From assembly GCA_964490365.1 (NCBI GenBank), contig CAZBAG010000001.1:56459-120458 (forward strand): a DNA stretch of 64,000 nt, written 5' to 3'. Within the stretch, counting starts at the first letter, position 1. Each line of letters starts with the position of its first letter. The notes under the pieces were generated by a model. It saw only the letters and a list, made by a program, of their open reading frames with translations. It was not told the DNA's origin and ran no database searches. The position numbers and the translations under genes are program-made. Source of the DNA: an uncultured Candidatus Saccharibacteria bacterium. Its GTDB lineage: Bacteria > Patescibacteriota > Minisyncoccia > Phycocordibacterales > CSBR16-119. Positions 14,555-23,566 of the stretch are shown here, piece after piece.

Positions 14555-14833
14555 ATGTCACTAAAATCGTTTGTAAAAATAATGCTCGTGGTGTCACTCT
14601 TGCTCATGCCATTTTGGGTTACAGCAATTCTTTTTATTTTTTCAATATTTTATTTTGACTACTTCTATTTTGGTCTTTTGGTCATGTTTGTACTCGATTT
14701 GCTCTATGGATTTGAAACCGTTACACTTCATGGAATTCCAGGTATTGTTTTCTTTTCTTCAGTTATTCTATTCCTTCTCTCTTTTTTAGTAAAACGATTT
14801 ATCACTATTCGTCACAACTATGAAAATTTTTAA
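14555..14833 (+). CDS. small polytopic membrane protein, translationally coupled to the PBP gene; possibly a degenerate MreD-like protein
   Basis: 92 aa with three hydrophobic segments. Its end overlaps the next start by 14 nt, and a TATAAT box lies about 12 nt upstream. Confidence 0.45.
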   Translation: MSLKSFVKIMLVVSLLLMPFWVTAILFIFSIFYFDYFYFGLLVMFVLDLLYGFETVTLHGIPGIVFFSSVILFLLSFLVKRFITIRHNYENF

Positions 14834-16508
14834 AAAGAAACGAATTCAGCGTGATATTGCGCTCGATGAAATATTTATGGACAGTCACAATATGCCAGAC
14901 TTCGATACGCAACAGTTCGAAGGGCGTATTGAAACGCCAATTTCTAAGCGTTCGCTCATTACGCTTTCAATATTTTTTTTCTTAATTATCAGTGTGTTTT
15001 CTGCAAAGCTTCATGTGCTTCAAATTAAAAAAGGTGAAGCATACTACAAAATTAGTGAAAGAAACGCGTTGAATGGTCAGATTATTTTTGCGGACCGAGG
15101 TATTATTTATGATAGAAACGGTGTTGAGCTTGCATGGAATGAAGAAAAAGAGGAAGACGGTACATTTGGTAAACGCGCATATATTCAAAAAGGTGGATTT
15201 GGTGTACTCCTTGGCTATGTTGATATTCCCAAGAAAGATAAATTTGGTTTTTGGTGGCAAGAAAAATTTATTGGTAAAGACGGGCTCGAAAAATATTACG
15301 ATGATTCTTTAAACGGTGAAAACGGTAGTAAGTTTATAGAAAAAAATGCACTGGGTGAAATTGAATCAGAGAATATCGTCAATACTCCAGAGCACGGTGT
15401 TAACTTGAACGTTTCCATTGATTCTCGTTTACAGACTGTCATGTATGACGCTATTGTTGACCTGTCTTCACGTATTGGTTACGAGGGTGGGGCAGGCGTG
15501 ATTATGGACATTTACACGGGTGAAATTATTGTTTCGACAAGTTACCCAGAATATAGTTCGCAAGTCATGTCTGATGGTGAGCCAAATGAAGTCATTCAAG
15601 AATATTTAAACAATACTCGAAAACCATTTCTTAACCGACCAATCTCTGGACTATACTCACCAGGTTCTATTGTCAAACCGTTTGTCGCCATTGGGGCGCT
15701 CCATGAAAATGTCATTACAAAAGATACACGGATTTTAAGTACTGGTTCTATTGAAATTCCAAATCCATATAATCCAGAGCTTTCAACAATCTTTCGTGAT
15801 TGGAAAGAGGAAGGACACGGTTATGTAAATGTGGTTAGAGCGATTGGTGATTCGGTGAATACATTTTTCTATGCTATTGGTGGTGGTTACAAAGGGCAAA
15901 CAGGTCTCGGTATTTCAAAAATCGACGAATACATGAAACTCTTTGGAGTAGGGCAAAAGACAGGAGTTGATATGCAAGGAGAGGTAACAGGTGTTATTCC
16001 AAATCCTGATTGGAAGAAAAGAGTGTTCAAGGGTGATGCCTGGAGGCTCGGAGATACTTATAACACGTCAATTGGTCAGTATGGTTTTCAAGTAACACCT
16101 ATTCAAATGGTTCGCTCAATTGCAATTATTGCCAACGAAGGAGTCATGGTTACTCCAAGTTTTTCACTCGAAAGTATTAGCAAACCACAAAAGATTACCA
16201 AAGATATTTCTCCAGAAAATTATGCACTGGTAAAAGAGGGGATGAGAGATGTGGTGGAGGCTGGTACAGGTATGCTTCTTAATGTTCCGTACGTAAATGT
16301 TGGGGCAAAAACAGGTACCGCGCAAACAGGTGTTGGTAATAAATTTGTAAACTCATGGTCGGTCGGTTTCTTTCCATATGAAGAGCCCCGCTATGCATTT
16401 GTGGTTATGATGGAACGGGGTCCTTCGAAAAATGACTTAAGTTCATCGTTCGTTATGAGGCAAGTTTTTGACTTTATGAACACGACTGCGCCTGAATATT
16501 TCGAATAA
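14820..16508 (+). CDS. class B penicillin-binding protein / peptidoglycan D,D-transpeptidase (PBP2-like)
   Basis: SXXK motif (GSIVKP), SXN motif (DSVN) and KTG motif (AKTGTA), with an N-terminal TM and dimerisation domain. Confidence 0.85.
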   Translation: MKIFKKKRIQRDIALDEIFMDSHNMPDFDTQQFEGRIETPISKRSLITLSIFFFLIISVFSAKLHVLQIKKGEAYYKISERNALNGQIIFADRGIIYDRNGVELAWNEEKEEDGTFGKRAYIQKGGFGVLLGYVDIPKKDKFGFWWQEKFIGKDGLEKYYDDSLNGENGSKFIEKNALGEIESENIVNTPEHGVNLNVSIDSRLQTVMYDAIVDLSSRIGYEGGAGVIMDIYTGEIIVSTSYPEYSSQVMSDGEPNEVIQEYLNNTRKPFLNRPISGLYSPGSIVKPFVAIGALHENVITKDTRILSTGSIEIPNPYNPELSTIFRDWKEEGHGYVNVVRAIGDSVNTFFYAIGGGYKGQTGLGISKIDEYMKLFGVGQKTGVDMQGEVTGVIPNPDWKKRVFKGDAWRLGDTYNTSIGQYGFQVTPIQMVRSIAIIANEGVMVTPSFSLESISKPQKITKDISPENYALVKEGMRDVVEAGTGMLLNVPYVNVGAKTGTAQTGVGNKFVNSWSVGFFPYEEPRYAFVVMMERGPSKNDLSSSFVMRQVFDFMNTTAPEYFE

Positions 16509-16555: not shown

Positions 16556-17017
16556 ATGATACGAGAATACATAACAAAAGAGCGAGCACAAGAACTAAAA
16601 GCCGAACTTCTCGAGCTTTCTAGTGTCCGAAGAAAAGAAATTATTGAATCTCTCGAATACGCAAAATCACTCGGAGACCTTTCAGAAAATGCAGAATATC
16701 AACAAGCTCGTGAAGCGCAAGCTATGCTTGAAGATCGAATCCAAGAAATCAATCGAATTCTCAAAGATGCAGAAATTGTTTCAAAGAAAAAAACAGATAC
16801 AGCTGGTATTGGATGTACTGTGGAAGTAAAGAAAAAAGGCGATACAAAATCACGTCACTATATTCTTGTTGGTGAAGGAGAGGCTGATATGGCTCTCGGA
16901 AAGATTTCTTACCAATCTCCACTTGGCGAAGCATTGTTTGGAGCAAAAAAAGGTGAGTCAGTTACCTTTAAAAGTCCAGCAGGTCCTATTGAATATAAAA
17001 TAATTGATATACAATAG
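16556..17017 (+). CDS. greA: transcription elongation factor GreA
   Basis: N-terminal coiled coil (LSENAEYQQAREAQAMLEDRI) plus an FKBP-like C-terminal domain. Size is typical. Confidence 0.9.
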   Translation: MIREYITKERAQELKAELLELSSVRRKEIIESLEYAKSLGDLSENAEYQQAREAQAMLEDRIQEINRILKDAEIVSKKKTDTAGIGCTVEVKKKGDTKSRHYILVGEGEADMALGKISYQSPLGEALFGAKKGESVTFKSPAGPIEYKIIDIQ

Positions 17018-17021
17018 AGTC

Positions 17022-18500
17022 ATGACTCGCTTAGAAGAAATAAAAGAATCTCGACTACACAAGCTCCAAGAACTTGAAAAGGCTGGTATGTTGGCTTTCC
17101 AAGCTGTAACTCGTCGAGATCACACTCTCCAAGAGGTTTCTGAAAAATTTTCAACACTATCAGGCGACTTCTCTGTAGTGGGAAGAGTTATTGCAATTCG
17201 AGGTCAAGGAGCAATACTCTTTGTGGTGTTAAGCGATGGAACCGGGGAGTTCCAGGTGGTATTTAAGCGAGATGTCTTAGGGGAAGATAAACTCGACCTT
17301 TTCACGCGAACAGTTGATATGGGCGATTTTCTTCAGATTCAAGGCGAAGCGTTTACTACTGAACGCGGCGCAGAAAGTATCCTTGTTTCTGATTGGAACA
17401 TGCTTACAAAGTCACTTGCTCCACTTCCAGAAAAATGGGCAGGTCTACAAGATGTTGAAGAAAAATATCGCAAACGATATCTTGATATTCTTTCTGATCA
17501 AGAAGTATTTTCTCGATTTCAAAAACGAAGTGAGATTATAAAATACATACGACAATTTTTTGATACAAAAGGTTTTATGGAAATTGAAACACCAATCCTG
17601 CAAAACCAGGCTGGTGGTGCGATGGCAAAAACGTTTAATACTCATCATAACGATTATGATATGGACATGGTGCTTCGTATCTCTCTTGAGATTGAGCACA
17701 AAATGCTTATGGTTGGTGGTTTTAACAAAATTTATGAAATAGGAAAGAATTTCCGAAACGAAGGATCTGACCCAACCCATTTGCAAGAGTTTACGATGAT
17801 GGAGTGGTACGCTGCGTATATGTCTTTGGAAGAAAATATGCTTCTCACAGAAAATTTGTTAAGGGGCCTTGCACAAGATGTGATGCAAAAAAATGTATTC
17901 ACAGTGTATAACAAAGATAACAACCCTGTGTTGGTTGATTTCGAAAAAACTTGGAACAGGGTACATTTCGCCGATCTTCTGAAAGAAAACGCTGGACTTG
18001 ATATGTTTTCTGCATCTCTTTTTGACATACAAGAAAAAGCAAAAGAGTTTGGCATGGATGAAAAAGAATTATCTCTCACTGGTAGGGCAAATCTTCTTGA
18101 TTTTATTTACAAAAAATCTTCGCGAAATAAGATAGTTCATCCAACATTTGTGATGAACTATCCAACCGATTTAAAACCGCTTGCTGCTCAAAATGGCGAC
18201 GGTACTGCCAATATGTGTCAGCTTATTATTGCGGGTGCGGAGATCACAAACCAATACCAAGAACTGGTAAATCCTCTTCTACAGAGAAAATTACTTGAAA
18301 CTCAATCGAGTGCAAAAGAGGCGGGTGACGAAGAGGCAATGAGTGTTAACGAAGAATTTCTAACTGCCATGGAACACGGTATGCCACCAATGACGGGTTT
18401 CGGTATGGGTATCGATAGACTAGTTGCAATTTTAACTGAACAAAATAATCTTCGAGACACCGTCTTTTTCCCAATCATGAGAAAAAGAGGAGAGGAGTAG
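17022..18500 (+). CDS. lysS: lysine--tRNA ligase (class II)
   Basis: OB-fold N-terminus, then motif 1 (ETPILQ), motif 2 (FRNEG) and motif 3 (GFGMGIDRLVAIL). Start set just after the greA stop. Confidence 0.9.
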   Translation: MTRLEEIKESRLHKLQELEKAGMLAFQAVTRRDHTLQEVSEKFSTLSGDFSVVGRVIAIRGQGAILFVVLSDGTGEFQVVFKRDVLGEDKLDLFTRTVDMGDFLQIQGEAFTTERGAESILVSDWNMLTKSLAPLPEKWAGLQDVEEKYRKRYLDILSDQEVFSRFQKRSEIIKYIRQFFDTKGFMEIETPILQNQAGGAMAKTFNTHHNDYDMDMVLRISLEIEHKMLMVGGFNKIYEIGKNFRNEGSDPTHLQEFTMMEWYAAYMSLEENMLLTENLLRGLAQDVMQKNVFTVYNKDNNPVLVDFEKTWNRVHFADLLKENAGLDMFSASLFDIQEKAKEFGMDEKELSLTGRANLLDFIYKKSSRNKIVHPTFVMNYPTDLKPLAAQNGDGTANMCQLIIAGAEITNQYQELVNPLLQRKLLETQSSAKEAGDEEAMSVNEEFLTAMEHGMPPMTGFGMGIDRLVAILTEQNNLRDTVFFPIMRKRGEE

Positions 18501-18510
18501 AGGAATTTTC

Positions 18511-18545
18511 AAAAAAGCCCCATGACTGTGTCATGGGGCTTTTTA
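18511..18545. terminator. bidirectional intrinsic terminator (AAAAAA-GCCCCATGAC-tgt-GTCATGGGGC-TTTTT)
   Basis: Perfect 10-bp stem flanked by A-runs and T-runs. Confidence 0.85.
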
Positions 18546-18557
18546 GCGCGTCTGGCG

Positions 18558-18761
18558 CTAGTGTTTCGCCGGGAGATCTCTCTCATCTGTCTTTTTCCCA
18601 CCTGGACTATAAGGTACTTGGTCTATTTCCGGAAACAACTGCCCCTGTAAGTCCAAAAGGGTCTGTACATCAGCAGTTAACATTCCGCCTACCAATCCAT
18701 CGTCATTCAGGCCGTAAACACCGGCAGTATTACCCCTCTTGGTGTCGTATGCTTGTTCCAT
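18558..18761 (-). CDS. hypothetical small protein (67 aa, starting MEQAYDTKRGN), GC-richer patch
   Basis: ORF that ends at the bidirectional terminator, which supports its strand. The start is uncertain. The overlapping plus-strand ORF begins inside the terminator and is rejected. Confidence 0.3.
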   Translation of the reverse strand: MEQAYDTKRGNTAGVYGLNDDGLVGGMLTADVQTLLDLQGQLFPEIDQVPYSPGGKKTDERDLPAKH

Positions 18762-18836
18762 TTGGCTTGGGTTTCCAATAATAATACAACATAAATAAAA
18801 AATAGTCAAAAATCATCTTTGTTTTCCACAGATTGA

Positions 18837-18903
18837 GTGGGAAATGGTTTTTGGCTAGTGGGATAAAGTGGTGTATAATTACCTCTAGGTGGGATAAAGT
18901 GGT
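18837..18903 (+). promoter_or_regulatory. mraZ promoter with MraZ operator repeats: GTGG(G/T) boxes at about 10-11 bp periodicity, -35 TTGGCT and -10 TATAAT
   Basis: GTGGG at 18837, 18858 and 18889; GTGGT at 18868 and 18899. Perfect TATAAT at 18874-18879, with TTGGCT 17 nt upstream. Confidence 0.65.
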
Positions 18904-18917
18904 AAGTTGTAAATTAT

Positions 18918-19352
18918 ATGTTAATAGGCGAATACATTCACACAATTGATAACAAAAACAGGGTTTCTCTTCCCGCAAAATTCCGAAAGGAAATGGGGAA
19001 GAGCCTTGTTGTTACTCCAGGTTTGGATAATTGTCTTTTCATATTTACCAAAAAGGAATGGGTTAAGATTTCTGAAAAACTTTCTGAGTTTTCAATGCTC
19101 ACAGCAGACAACAGAAGTTTTAACCGATTTATGTTTGGAGGTGCCACTGAAGTTGATGTCGATTCTATCGGCAGATTTTTGCTTCCAGATTTCTTAAAAA
19201 CTCGTGCAGGGCTTTCTGAAAAAGTAGCGCTTGTTGGTGTACAGAATCGAGTTGAAATTTGGAGTGATACAAAGTGGGCAGAATATAAAAAACTAGTTGA
19301 AAAGCAAGCAGATTCATTAGCAGAAAAATTAGGTGGAGCTGGAATGCTTTAG
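18918..19352 (+). CDS. mraZ: division/cell wall cluster transcriptional regulator MraZ
   Basis: Duplicated SpoVT-AbrB-like halves (IDNKNRVSLPAKFR ... VDSIGRFLLPDFL) and a conserved length. Confidence 0.9.
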   Translation: MLIGEYIHTIDNKNRVSLPAKFRKEMGKSLVVTPGLDNCLFIFTKKEWVKISEKLSEFSMLTADNRSFNRFMFGGATEVDVDSIGRFLLPDFLKTRAGLSEKVALVGVQNRVEIWSDTKWAEYKKLVEKQADSLAEKLGGAGML

Positions 19353-19356
19353 GTTT

Positions 19357-20247
19357 ATGCACAAGACAGTACTTTTACATGAATCAATCGACGCTCTCAA
19401 TCTCACTTCTGGAGAGGTTGTGGTTGACTGTACACTCGGTGCAGGCGGACATACAGAAGAAATCTGCAAGCGTTTTGGTGCTCATGTAAAAATTATTGGA
19501 CTTGATATGGACCAGGACGCAATAGATCGCTCTCAAAAACGTTTGGCTGAATTTAATTGTGATACAACATTTCATCTTTCAAACTTTAGAGATTTTGATT
19601 CAATTTTATCGAACTTGGGAGTGACTGAAGTAGATGGTTTTTTGCTTGATCTCGGGTTTAGCTCATACCAGATTGAAGATTCAGGAAGAGGTTTCTCTTT
19701 TAAGCGAGATGAGCCACTCACTATGACACTCAAGAAGCAGGTAACCGAAAATGATATTACTGCAGAAATGATTGTGAATCATTGGTCAGAAGAAAGCATT
19801 GCAAATATTTTGTATGGTTATGGCAATGAACGATTCTCTCGTCGCATTGCTCATGAAATTGTTGTGTCTCGAGAAAAAATGGCGATCACCACAACGTCTG
19901 ACTTAGTGGCGATTATTGAGCGGGCCGTACCGTTCTTTTATAGAAACGGAAGAATTCATCCTGCCACAAAAACATTTCAAGCGTTGCGTATTGCTGTCAA
20001 CGATGAACTAGGGGCACTTGAAGAATTTTTAGAAAAAGGGTTCGAAGCACTTAAGAAAGATGGAAGAATGGCAGTCATATCATTTCACAGTTTAGAAGAT
20101 AGAATCGTAAAGAATTTTTTTAGAAAAAAGAAGGACGAAGGTGAAGCTCTGATTATCACGAAAAAACCAATTATTCCCGGAGAAGACGAACTAAAAGAGA
20201 ACCCAAGGTCGAGAAGTGCAAAATTAAGAACCTTACAAAAAATATAA
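19357..20247 (+). CDS. rsmH: 16S rRNA (cytosine1402-N4)-methyltransferase RsmH (MraW)
   Basis: HKTVLLHESIDAL ... VDCTLGAGGH ... ISFHSLEDRIVK, in the canonical position after mraZ. Confidence 0.9.
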   Translation: MHKTVLLHESIDALNLTSGEVVVDCTLGAGGHTEEICKRFGAHVKIIGLDMDQDAIDRSQKRLAEFNCDTTFHLSNFRDFDSILSNLGVTEVDGFLLDLGFSSYQIEDSGRGFSFKRDEPLTMTLKKQVTENDITAEMIVNHWSEESIANILYGYGNERFSRRIAHEIVVSREKMAITTTSDLVAIIERAVPFFYRNGRIHPATKTFQALRIAVNDELGALEEFLEKGFEALKKDGRMAVISFHSLEDRIVKNFFRKKKDEGEALIITKKPIIPGEDELKENPRSRSAKLRTLQKI

Positions 20248-20250
20248 CGT

Positions 20251-20562
20251 ATGAATAGTAATCACACACAACCAAAGGGACGATTGAACCATGGACGAGT
20301 ATTTTTCTTTGGTCTTATCTTTTTTGTGATTGTTGCCTTCAGCTTCTATATGTTCTTTTTAGGGCGAACGATCTTTGATCTTGTAGACAGAAAAAATGTT
20401 GAGCAAGAGATCCATCTTGCATCATCTCGTATTTCAGAGCTGGAACTTCAAGTTTTAGATTATAATAACCAAGTAACACTCCAAAAGGCTTATGATCTTG
20501 GCTTTGTTAATAATGGGGATCCAAAATTTGTAAGCAGAAAACAGACGGCGTTACTTAGATAA
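20251..20562 (+). CDS. ftsL: cell division protein FtsL-like (single TM plus coiled coil)
   Basis: Sits between rsmH and ftsI. Has an N-terminal TM and a short coiled coil. Its stop overlaps the ftsI start (TAATG). Confidence 0.6.
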   Translation: MNSNHTQPKGRLNHGRVFFFGLIFFVIVAFSFYMFFLGRTIFDLVDRKNVEQEIHLASSRISELELQVLDYNNQVTLQKAYDLGFVNNGDPKFVSRKQTALLR

Positions 20563-22283
20563 TGAACAAGATACGAAAAGGGTTTTTAATACGAATACGA
20601 GTACTCTCAGCGCTCGTTATTATCGTAGGGCTATTTCTTATTGCTCGATTGTTTCATGTTCAATATGTAAATAGGGAATACTATGTCAATAAAAGTGACA
20701 ATGCCTATGTACAGTCTGTAGATTCCTTTGACCGCGGAGTTATTTATTTTGAAAAAAAAGATGGTACACGTATTTCTGCCGCTACCGTGATGACAAGCTA
20801 TATTCTTGCAGTGCGTCCACGAGATATTCGTGACAAAGAACTTACCTATCAAAAAATTAATGAAATCTTTCCGATCGACAAGAAAGAGTTCATGGAAAAA
20901 GTCTCGAAAGAAAATGACCCATATGAAGAGATTTCTAAAAAAATTCCAAAAGACGTCCGAGACAAAATCATGGAGCTCGACTTGATTGGTGTTGAAATGC
21001 CTCGTCATAAGTGGCGATTTTACCCAGGTGAATCATTGGCTGCACATACGCTTGGTTTTATGGCATACAAGGGTGATGAAATCACTGGACGTTATGGTGT
21101 TGAACGTTTCTATAACGAAACTCTCTCTCGTGGAGAAGAGGATGTTCAAATTAATATTTTTGCCGAACTCTTTTCAAATTTTGGAGACTCTTCATACGAA
21201 GAATCACAGAAAAAAGCAGATATCATCACAACCATAGAGCCAGTCGTTCAAAATTTTGCTGAGCAAGAGTTGTTACGAACGATGAAAAAATTTGGATCGG
21301 AAGCTGCAAACGGTATTATTATTAATCCTCAAAATGGTGAGATCTTGGCGATGGTGCACTTACCATCATTTGATTTAAATAACTTTGGAAGTGTTGAAGA
21401 CGTTTCTGAATATTCAAATCCACTTATTGAAAATGTTTTTGAGTTTGGGTCTGTGGTTAAACCACTTGTTATAGCCGCTGCACTTGATGCTGGCGTTATT
21501 TCTGCAGATACACCTTTCTATGATCCTGGTTTTGTGCAAGTAGAAGATAAGAAAATAGAAAACTTCGACAAAAGGGGGCGGGGTCAAACAACCATGCAAA
21601 CAGTACTTTCAGAGTCGTTAAACACAGGTATGGTGTATTCAATGCGTCAGCTTGGAAAAAGTCGCTTCCGTGAGTATATGTTGTCGTATGGTATTGGTGA
21701 AAAAACCGGTGTTGATTTACCTAATGAAGCAAAAGGGTTGATGTCAAACCTTGAATCACCGCGAGAACTTGAATATGCTACTGCCTCATTCGGTCAGGGT
21801 ATTTCGTTTAGTCCAGTAGTGTTAGTTCGCGCCCTCTCGTCTATTGCAAACGGTGGGTATTTAATTCAACCTCATATTGTAAAAAGATTTGAATATGTTC
21901 AAGGCGAAGCGCAAGATGTTGCTTACAACAAAACAGATGGAAAACGAGTGTTGAAAGAGGGAACCTCTGAGAAAATTTCTCGCATGCTTGTTTCGATTGT
22001 TGATAACACACTAGGGGAAGGTAAGTATAAAATGCCAGGGCACTCAATTGCCGCAAAAACAGGTACGGCTCAGATCCCGAATCCACGAGGCGGCGGATAT
22101 ATTGAAGGGAAAAACCTCCACTCGTTCTTTGGATATTTCCCAGCCTATGACCCAGAGTTTCTTGTGTTTATTTCTAATACCGCGCCAGTAGGGGCTCGTT
22201 TCGCCTCAGAGACACTTACAGAACCATTTATGAATATTGCTCATTTCCTCATTAATTACTACGAAATTCCACCAGACAGGTAG
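20562..22283 (+). CDS. ftsI: peptidoglycan D,D-transpeptidase FtsI (class B PBP, division-specific)
   Basis: SXXK (GSVVKP), SXN (SESLN), KTG (AKTGTAQ), an N-terminal TM, and division-cluster context. Confidence 0.85.
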   Translation: MNKIRKGFLIRIRVLSALVIIVGLFLIARLFHVQYVNREYYVNKSDNAYVQSVDSFDRGVIYFEKKDGTRISAATVMTSYILAVRPRDIRDKELTYQKINEIFPIDKKEFMEKVSKENDPYEEISKKIPKDVRDKIMELDLIGVEMPRHKWRFYPGESLAAHTLGFMAYKGDEITGRYGVERFYNETLSRGEEDVQINIFAELFSNFGDSSYEESQKKADIITTIEPVVQNFAEQELLRTMKKFGSEAANGIIINPQNGEILAMVHLPSFDLNNFGSVEDVSEYSNPLIENVFEFGSVVKPLVIAAALDAGVISADTPFYDPGFVQVEDKKIENFDKRGRGQTTMQTVLSESLNTGMVYSMRQLGKSRFREYMLSYGIGEKTGVDLPNEAKGLMSNLESPRELEYATASFGQGISFSPVVLVRALSSIANGGYLIQPHIVKRFEYVQGEAQDVAYNKTDGKRVLKEGTSEKISRMLVSIVDNTLGEGKYKMPGHSIAAKTGTAQIPNPRGGGYIEGKNLHSFFGYFPAYDPEFLVFISNTAPVGARFASETLTEPFMNIAHFLINYYEIPPDR

Positions 22284-22354
22284 CTGTTGTAATTGTTTTT
22301 CTTTTGTCTACTAAAATTGGTATACTAAACCAGTTATTTTTAGTTACAACACAC

Positions 22355-23566
22355 ATGCAAAATCCATTCGAAAATGCTCTTTTACAACTACGACGAGCTC
22401 ATCATGCAAAATCATTCCCGGAAAGTTTTATTGACCGTCTTGCGCATCCAGATAGACAAGTTCGTATTTCAATCCCTCTTACTATGGATAATGGAACAGA
22501 GAGAATTTTTGAAGGATATCGTGTTGAACACAACAACAAGCGTGGGCCATACAAAGGCGGCATTCGATTTCACCAAGATGCAGATATGCATGAAGTAAAC
22601 GCTCTTGCTCTTTGGATGACACTCAAATGTGCAGTGGCAAATATTCCGATGGGTGGTGGCAAGGGTGGTATTACTGTTGATCCAAAAATACTTTCAAAAA
22701 AAGAACTCGAAGAGCTTTCTCGTGGTTGGGTGCGAGGCATGCTTCCACTTCTTGGTCCGCAAAAAGATGTTCCTGCACCAGATGTAAATACTAATGGGGA
22801 GATAATGTCATGGATGATAGACGAATATGAAAAGCTCACAGGTGAAATGTCTGGTGCAACGTTTACTGGAAAACCTCTTTCGAACAGAGGCTCACAAGGT
22901 CGTGAAGAAGCAACGTCTATGGGTGGCCTGTATGTGTTCAATGCACTCCGTGAAAGTTTAAACCTCGAGGGAACGCTCAAGGTTGTGGTTCAGGGTCTTG
23001 GTAACGTTGGCGGACACGCAGCCTTGCTGTTTGAAGCAGATGGTCATTCTGTTATTGCGCTTTCAGATTCAAAGGGTGCAATTATGAATGAAAGTGGTTT
23101 AAATGTACAGGCGGTCATGGACTACAAAAAGCAAACAGGAAGTGTTGTTGGATTTCCAGGCTCACAGGAAATTTCTCAGGCAGAGCTTTTGACGTTTGCG
23201 TGCGATGTTCTTATTCCATCAGCTCTTGAAAATCAAATCACAGGTGAAAATGCAAAAGATATCAAAGCTAAAGTTGTACTTGAGCTTGCAAATGGTCCAA
23301 CAACACCAGAGGCAGATGATGTTCTGTTTGCGAAGGGTATTCATGTGGTACCAGATATTCTAGCAAATTCAGGCGGAGTGACTGTTTCAACATTTGAATG
23401 GGAACAAAACCTAAAAAATGAAACGTGGACAAAAGAAGACGTACTTGCTCGTCTTAAAGTAAAAATGGAAAAAGAAGCAAATAATGTCTTAGATACTGCT
23501 CGAAAATACGAAACTGATTTGCGTCGGGGAGCATTTATTTTGGCAATGGAAAGGTTGTCAGAATAG
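22355..23566 (+). CDS. Glu/Leu/Phe/Val dehydrogenase family enzyme (glutamate dehydrogenase-like)
   Basis: Catalytic glycine-rich PMGGGKGG motif and a dinucleotide fold GLGNVGG. Start set at MQNPFE, after a TGgTATACT extended -10. Confidence 0.8.
   Translation: MQNPFENALLQLRRAHHAKSFPESFIDRLAHPDRQVRISIPLTMDNGTERIFEGYRVEHNNKRGPYKGGIRFHQDADMHEVNALALWMTLKCAVANIPMGGGKGGITVDPKILSKKELEELSRGWVRGMLPLLGPQKDVPAPDVNTNGEIMSWMIDEYEKLTGEMSGATFTGKPLSNRGSQGREEATSMGGLYVFNALRESLNLEGTLKVVVQGLGNVGGHAALLFEADGHSVIALSDSKGAIMNESGLNVQAVMDYKKQTGSVVGFPGSQEISQAELLTFACDVLIPSALENQITGENAKDIKAKVVLELANGPTTPEADDVLFAKGIHVVPDILANSGGVTVSTFEWEQNLKNETWTKEDVLARLKVKMEKEANNVLDTARKYETDLRRGAFILAMERLSE

Follow-up and report, generated by a model that had tools for sequence, protein, structure and literature searches.

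The sequence at positions 18837-18903 of the window, by which we mean the whole 64 kb stretch of DNA analysed here, very probably forms the combined promoter and operator of an mraZ-rsmH-ftsL-like-PBP operon that is bound by MraZ and negatively autoregulated, in an ultra-small bacterium of the Patescibacteria (Paceibacterota/Parcubacteria type). In the proposed model, a sigma-70-type promoter is interleaved with GTGG(G/T) boxes that all lie on one face of the helix, with two boxes in the spacer between the -35 and -10 hexamers, two over roughly +2 to +17 and one just 5' of the -35 hexamer. MraZ, the first product of the operon, would most likely bind these boxes cooperatively as an oligomer, one subunit contacting each box through its beta-sheet 'cradle' (K13, R15, R86). 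Such an oligomer, extending along one face of the DNA, would block RNA polymerase at both the core promoter and the start site, the predicted outcome being negative autoregulation of the division genes. The element is real and ordinary, and represents a known mechanism in a slightly unusual layout.

The features of the control region are given below, where the promoter and transcription start are consensus predictions.

18781-18809, minus strand: divergent promoter-like site TTGACT-17-TATTAT, from the promoter scan.
18822-18830, plus strand: DnaA-box-like element TTTTCCACA, which fits TTWTNCACA and has one mismatch to TTATCCACA.
18837-18841, plus strand: box E (GTGGG), the fifth box, which starts 21 nt 5' of box A; the -35 hexamer separates the two.
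18851-18856, plus strand: -35 hexamer TTGGCT, from the promoter scan, 1 nt before box A.
18858-18872, plus strand: boxes A (GTGGG, 18858-18862) and B (GTGGT, 18868-18872), the first copy of the 15-mer, with 1 nt to spare on each side of the promoter spacer.
18874-18879, plus strand: -10 hexamer TATAAT, at a skipped lattice position between the box pairs.
18887-18888, plus strand: predicted transcription start (A/G), placed 8-9 nt after the -10 hexamer.
18889-18903, plus strand: boxes C (GTGGG, 18889-18893) and D (GTGGT, 18899-18903), the second copy of the 15-mer, at about +2 to +17 of the predicted transcript.

All five boxes are direct repeats on the plus strand with the core GTG(G/T) (TGGGN in the E. 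coli nomenclature) and are located upstream of mraZ, the last of them (box D) ending 14 nt 5' of the mraZ ATG. The 15-mer GTGGGATAAAGTGGT is present in two identical copies, while AGTGGGA recurs at a distance of 21 nt in boxes E and A. Inspection of the sequence confirmed every coordinate that a preliminary description had given, as well as its two 15-mer copies, TTGGCT and the 17-nt spacer. Boxes follow each other at 10 nt within the pairs, and the pairs, 21 nt apart, are in helical phase; the start-to-start spacings are 21, 10, 21 and 10 nt. The repeats are unevenly spaced on a lattice of approximately 10.3-10.5 bp per step (31/3 = 10.3; 21/2 = 10.5), with two lattice positions skipped and these occupied by the -35 and -10 hexamers. 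Boxes A and B take up 15 of the 17 nucleotides between the hexamers of a sigma-70-type promoter (TTGGCT-17-TATAAT) that scored 10 of 12 consensus matches in the promoter scan, and whose TTG and TAnnnT are found at fixed positions in relatives. The array does not contain three or more contiguous boxes with six-nt separation (i.e. a 10-nt period), contiguity being confined to the pairs. This is a difference in layout, with periodicity and phase retained. The label 'textbook' applied in the preliminary description nevertheless goes too far, as the -35 and -10 hexamers divide the boxes into groups of 1 + 2 + 2, whereas the three boxes of E. coli are contiguous and all follow the -10.

On neither strand of the window is GTGGK clustered more densely than in the mraZ box array. 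Five boxes within 67 nt were seen in none of 300 first-order Markov simulations of the window; the maximum obtained was four, reached in two of the 300, and a chance origin of the cluster is excluded. The arrangement GTGG-N6-GTGG occurs at only two places in the window, both of them in the array. Outside mraZ upstream regions it was found three times in 482 kb, and one of these instances is a long-leader mraZ promoter. Because the 15-mers are a single duplicated unit, the five boxes do not represent five independent events within the window sequence, and independent support for them comes from the relatives.

The region was compared with 20 Patescibacteria loci from a genome scan (98-50% MraZ identity) and 80 more from a metagenome scan (96-63%). 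The closest genomes, assembled from metagenomes, are those of Patescibacteria and carry the labels Paceibacterota, Minisyncoccia, Nomurabacteria or Parcubacteria. Both 15-mers, the -10 hexamer and the TTG of the -35 are invariant in eight close relatives of the window, whose sequences vary beside the -35 and over the 9-10 nt leading from the -10 to box C. Among the first 21 sequences, the density of GTGG upstream of mraZ is 27 per kb compared to 2.2 per kb elsewhere (a 12-fold difference), and the spacings between GTGG pairs in that region peak at 10, 21, 31 and 41 nt, with 36, 27, 41 and 16 pairs respectively; the corresponding control gave 0-4 pairs in 360 kb.

Layouts were counted in 89 distinct Paceibacterota-type loci, each with at least 400 nt upstream of mraZ. 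A strict 2+2 layout (6 nt within each pair of boxes and 16-18 nt from one pair to the next) was observed in 67 of the 89, and at least a 1+2 layout (one box before the gap, two after) in 79. Three contiguous boxes are present in six loci, and five are degenerate. The hexamer located 1 nt 3' of box B reads TAnnnT in every one of the 67 strict loci (TATAAT in 37, TAAAAT in 18, others in 12). Boxes A and C are 31 nt apart in 53 loci and 30 nt apart in 17, and a fifth GTGG is found 20 or 21 nt 5' of box A in 40 of the 70 loci with a 2+2 layout. For these 70 loci, the consensus of boxes A/B is GTGGGAtaaAGTGgT and that of boxes C/D is AaGTGGGA.aaAGTGGgA, with the whole promoter described by TTGtat-n-GTGGGAtaaAGTGgT-n-TAtAAT-(9-10 nt)-GTGGGA.aaAGTGGgA. 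The TTG of the -35 is kept in relatives, its consensus TTGtat ending 1 nt before box A. The information content (70 loci) is near maximal for the boxes and low for the sequence between them, and a profile of 69 loci displays a conserved A two nucleotides 5' of box C. The 2+2 layout persists with fixed spacing down to approximately 58% MraZ identity. Apart from the -10, the 16 nt that separate the pairs drift freely. Hence, the comparison with related mraZ promoters that had been proposed as a check in the preliminary description reveals boxes and phasing kept in dozens of genomes with drifting spacers, as expected of an operator conserved in orthologous promoters.

The distance from box C to the mraZ ATG spans 21-258 nt across the loci. 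Furthermore, loci that at first seemed to lack boxes have this operator 200-360 nt upstream, with an extra small ORF intervening. This variable distance, together with the long-leader loci, indicates that the position of the boxes follows that of the promoter and not that of the start codon. The extra ORF, located between the MraZ operator and mraZ in six loci, encodes a basic protein of ~40-45 aa with the motif MKIEKR.Y+V.Y+GK...REKVLVR+ and is conserved in a sub-group of relatives. In that sub-group, heptamer tandem repeats (aaatctt, aaatcct, caactaa) are found after the ORF, just 5' of the mraZ ATG. No such ORF is present between operator and mraZ in the window.

The operon downstream of the control region consists of four genes.

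18918-19352, plus strand: mraZ, 144 aa, Pfam MraZ PF02381 (E = 1.7e-34), two half-domains.
19357-20247, plus strand: rsmH (mraW), 16S rRNA methyltransferase, the second operon gene, Pfam Methyltransf_5 (E = 2.1e-106).
20251-20562, plus strand: small ORF of 103 aa in the FtsL position, with one hydrophobic segment followed by a heptad-like region.
20562-22283, plus strand: penicillin-binding protein (PBP; FtsI/PBP2B-like), the last gene, Pfam Transpeptidase (E = 1.9e-65) with a weak PBP_dimer match.

These genes are encoded on one strand and separated by gaps of 4, 3 and -1 nt. The 103-aa ORF gave no Pfam match, and the label FtsL-like is by position only. The dcw cluster of the window is very short, consisting of mraZ, rsmH, the FtsL-like ORF and the PBP, and is directly followed by an ORF (22304-23566) resembling Glu/Leu/Phe/Val-type dehydrogenases. 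Upstream of mraZ are located a second PBP-like ORF (14820-16508), a GreA-like ORF (16556-17017) and lysS (17004-18500), all of these flanking genes being named from their translations. The gene order lysS to mraZ is kept in many relatives.

The window MraZ was aligned with the MraZ structures 9qlr_J and 1n0e. The alignment with the M. genitalium MraZ chain 9qlr_J is free of gaps over the N-terminal ~100 residues, which include all DNA-contact positions. Residues D11, K13, R15, D82 and R86 are invariant in an alignment spanning the window MraZ to that of E. coli, and the cognate MraZ thus has both DXXXR motifs as well as the base-contacting K13, R15 and R86. The identification of the boxes as an MraZ operator is supported by their core GTG(G/T) and six-nt spacers, which correspond to the published MraZ box (PMC12957436; bioRxiv 10.1101/2022.02.09.479790). 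The further proposal of the preliminary description, that MraZ autoregulation is preserved, is likewise supported at the sequence level by the adjoining mraZ gene, the conserved boxes and phasing, and the full set of DNA-contact residues. Since MraZ has been reported as an activator in M. gallisepticum (PMC12957436), it is the position of the boxes from which we infer the sign of regulation, and that position suggests repression.

The assignment of all five boxes to MraZ in the preliminary description holds well for boxes A-D and is less certain for box E. The DnaA-box-like element TTTTCCACA is part of an imperfect inverted repeat, TTTTCCAC-agattga-GTGGGAAA, in which the right arm GTGGGAAA at 18837 is box E; this box could belong to the upstream inverted repeat instead of the MraZ array. 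The DnaA-box consensus applied (TTATCCACA, or TTWTNCACA) is that of PMC8203912 and may not be the one used by this lineage; by that consensus, the window copy qualifies through its fit to TTWTNCACA. Relatives have agTTATCCACAg at the corresponding position, which contains the perfect DnaA-box consensus. Of 95 distinct loci, 56 have the perfect 9-mer TTATCCACA in the 250 nt that precede mraZ, and its density there is 2.44 per kb compared to 0.021 per kb in the rest of the same loci. The 9-mer occurs in either orientation, sometimes as the tandem TTATCCACTTATCCACA or head-to-head. Six loci contain tandem or head-to-head perfect boxes, while the window has one box with a degenerate partner, GTGGGAAA. 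Between TTATCCACA and box A the distance is either 30-33 nt, with an even spread over these values, or 21-22 nt, whereas the spacings of the box lattice are two-valued. The variants TTATGCACA, found in two loci, fit the N of TTATNCACA. The terminator of the upstream gene often directly precedes TTATCCACA, which indicates that the element is part of the promoter unit of mraZ.

Other places in the window give relaxed DnaA-box matches that mostly fall inside genes and look unlike the mraZ element, and hence there is no sign of a wider regulon in the window. An instance of TTATGCACA at 19355-19363 overlaps the rsmH start codon, fits TTATNCACA and is also present in two of the compared loci; it is probably coincidental with the coding sequence.

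These observations are compatible with a composite control, a reading we put forward tentatively and at somewhat below even confidence, in which boxes A-D are MraZ sites and TTTTCCACA (18822-18830), with or without the GTGGG at 18837, is bound by DnaA. Such an arrangement would let the division operon read the replication status in addition to the MraZ level, and would add to the MraZ explanation as opposed to replacing it. Binding by DnaA is suggested by the 116-fold enrichment of the perfect 9-mer (consensus agTTATCCACAg) at mraZ promoters and its near absence elsewhere. The distance to box A, looser than the box lattice, suggests a separate protein, and the flanks of TTATCCACA (TTAT, in fixed register) are unlike those of boxes A-D. 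The occurrence of both orientations, of tandem copies and of variants that fit TTATNCACA is also in keeping with a DnaA site. A precedent is available from B. subtilis, whose DnaA is reported to bind the yllB(mraZ)/ftsL promoter and to act there as a repressor once replication is arrested (Goranov 2005, cited by PMC2533591, PMC8203912 and bioRxiv 10.1101/2022.02.09.479790). However, the element shares the GTGG core of the MraZ boxes, on the other strand, and in a few loci its reverse form TGTGGATAA takes precisely the place of box E, 20 nt 5' of box A, where it could be bound by MraZ. The window copy is moreover imperfect, and in model organisms an isolated box makes a weak DnaA site. Searches with E. 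coli DnaA and DnaN (tblastn) gave no dnaA or dnaN match in the window or any compared locus, and there is neither dnaA nor an origin in these sequences from which the box of this lineage could be read.

Joint control of the operon by DnaA and MraZ is thus plausible but unproven. A literature search for mraZ together with the DnaA box returned matches only on the author name Mrazek. According to a recent review, a major effect of DnaA as a transcriptional regulator on when cytokinesis takes place has yet to be shown for any species (PMC8203912). It is possible, albeit doubtful, that the Paceibacterota-type division promoter in general is a fixed composite switch, in which a split MraZ operator interleaved with the -35 and -10 hexamers shares one helical face with a perfect DnaA box located ~50-60 nt 5' of the start, initiator and autoregulator acting together. 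If true, division would be tied to replication by conserved, hard-wired control in bacteria that have very few regulators, and a conserved DnaA box at a division promoter would offer a clean system for testing the link between DnaA and cytokinesis.

The upstream CCAC element might alternatively be an inverted MraZ box, such that 18822-18903 would be a six-box MraZ array covering up to eight lattice positions with no second factor involved. The GTGG core is identical, the element is approximately one helical turn (10-12 nt) from box E and two or three turns from box A, and MraZ is known to assemble as octamers (PMC12957436). We nonetheless consider this unlikely, as the subunits in the cryo-EM complex are bound head-to-tail on direct repeats, and an inverted box would need a flipped subunit (PMC12957436). 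In addition, the spacing to the lattice is looser than that between direct boxes, nine of nine positions fit the consensus of another protein, the register of the flanks is off by one nucleotide compared to boxes A-D, and tandem copies with a 9-nt period do not suit a 10-nt lattice. Binding of the upstream element by some other factor accounts for whatever likelihood DnaA and an inverted MraZ box leave over.

It is highly improbable that the boxes act as RNA, be it as a leader structure, a Shine-Dalgarno-like AGGTGGG or a hairpin at 18819-18847, instead of as DNA bound by a protein. The 5' leader would include boxes C and D, AGGTGG is similar to a ribosome-binding site and the hairpin is listed by the scan as terminator-like. 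Boxes A and B are however upstream of the -10 and would be untranscribed, yet they are conserved to the same extent as boxes C and D. A ribosome-binding role for AGGTGGG is ruled out by the range of 21-258 nt between box C and the ATG. The hairpin has a loop of 4-8 nt and arms that do not co-vary across relatives, the left arm being constant (TTATCCAC) and the right arm variable (GTGGGAAA, GTGGATAT, GTGGTATG, GTGGAGGA), and was rejected as an RNA element. Nor does it qualify as an intrinsic terminator, with only three G-C among 11 pairs (G-T pairs being allowed) and a loop of variable length. No Rfam family was detected at the element, using the gathering threshold over the whole window and E <= 1 over 18400-18950. 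That the 15-mers are the remnant of a neutral 31-bp duplication with coincidental GTGG spacing, as the box pairs might suggest in the window alone where they are one duplicated unit, is refuted to near certainty by the conservation data, the 2+2 layout and its fixed spacing being kept to ~58% MraZ identity while the sequence between the pairs diverges.

The divergent promoter-like site at 18781-18809 shares the control region but is probably part of a neighbouring unit. The -35 regions of this site and of mraZ are mirror images in an inverted repeat (18803-18816 and 18844-18857, 86% complementary), and the site is conserved in close relatives and absent in many loci with a terminator directly before TTATCCACA. 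The stretch 18550-18780, between the lysS terminator and the mraZ control region, has a G+C content of 46-50% compared to 39% for the window. It contains a minus-strand ORF of 83 aa (from TTG 18809) or 67 aa (from ATG 18762) for which no Pfam match was found, and the stretch itself gave no Rfam match. As blastn revealed no DNA similarity to 18550-18780 in the relatives, even in the locus with a 98% identical MraZ, this appears to be a variable spot. A symmetric hairpin, AAAAAAGCCCCATGAC-TGT-GTCATGGGGCTTTTT, is located at 18512-18546 after lysS, with an A-run before and a T-run after it, and hence looks like a bidirectional terminator. A Thr_leader Rfam match at 18446-18547 is placed on this lysS terminator hairpin; at 26.8 bits compared to a cut-off of 55 bits, it is regarded as probably spurious.

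Autoregulation of the dcw operon by MraZ is established in E. coli, B. subtilis and mycoplasmas, and its predicted presence in a lineage that is uncultured and genome-reduced serves chiefly to confirm how widespread the mechanism is. Within the literature searched, no paper combined MraZ with Patescibacteria or CPR. Most of ~90 distinct genomes keep the split layout, a 2+2 arrangement that leaves the gaps to the hexamers and frequently includes a fifth box, and it provides a natural test case for the 'flexible oligomer' model of binding derived from cryo-EM work of 2026.

The experimentally studied operators consist of three or four contiguous boxes, and the window operator differs from all those compared. 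In M. genitalium, the MraZ box is GTG(G/T) with 6-nt spacers and is read in the major groove by K13, R15 and R86, with D11 and D82 holding the contact residues in place (PMC12957436). Mutation of the boxes leads to a stepwise loss of repression, and the mapped transcription start is inside the first box (PMC12957436). The window resembles this system in box sequence, AAAGTG(T/G) preceded by an A-tract in M. genitalium corresponding to ATAAAGTGG in the window, in the identical positions of K13, R15, R86, D11 and D82, in a start at or inside a box (as predicted here), in the reduced genome and presumably in the repressor role of MraZ. In contrast, the four boxes of M. genitalium are contiguous and downstream of the -10, whereas the window operator is split. 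Deletion of the central boxes or lengthening of the spacers leaves M. genitalium MraZ with only residual binding, at high protein concentration (PMC12957436). By analogy with this tolerance of spacing, the split operator would be a layout variant of the same kind and not a different system.

The B. subtilis operon has the same content (mraZ-rsmH-ftsL-pbpB), and its three GTGG[A/T]G repeats are needed for repression, which is abolished by either R15A or R86A (bioRxiv 10.1101/2022.02.09.479790). A second input at this promoter, from DnaA, has also been reported. Unlike those of the window, the three repeats of B. subtilis are in a row with 4-nt spacers. In E. coli, three direct repeats of the type GTGGG/TGGGN make up the Pmra operator (Eraso et al. 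2014, J Bacteriol 196:2053, as described in citing papers). In the K-12 sequence, we read TTGACA-18-TAAACT followed by GTGGGaaatt, GTGGGgcaaa and GTGGGaataa, 10-mers that are nearly identical to GTGGGATAAA and GTGGGAAATG of the window. Both operators are located upstream of an mraZ that heads the dcw cluster, have a 10-nt period with boxes reaching the start region, and are associated with a MraZ containing the same DXXXR motifs. While the three E. coli boxes are contiguous and all downstream of the -10, the window has two boxes in the promoter spacer, two after the -10 and one before the -35, with no three of them contiguous.
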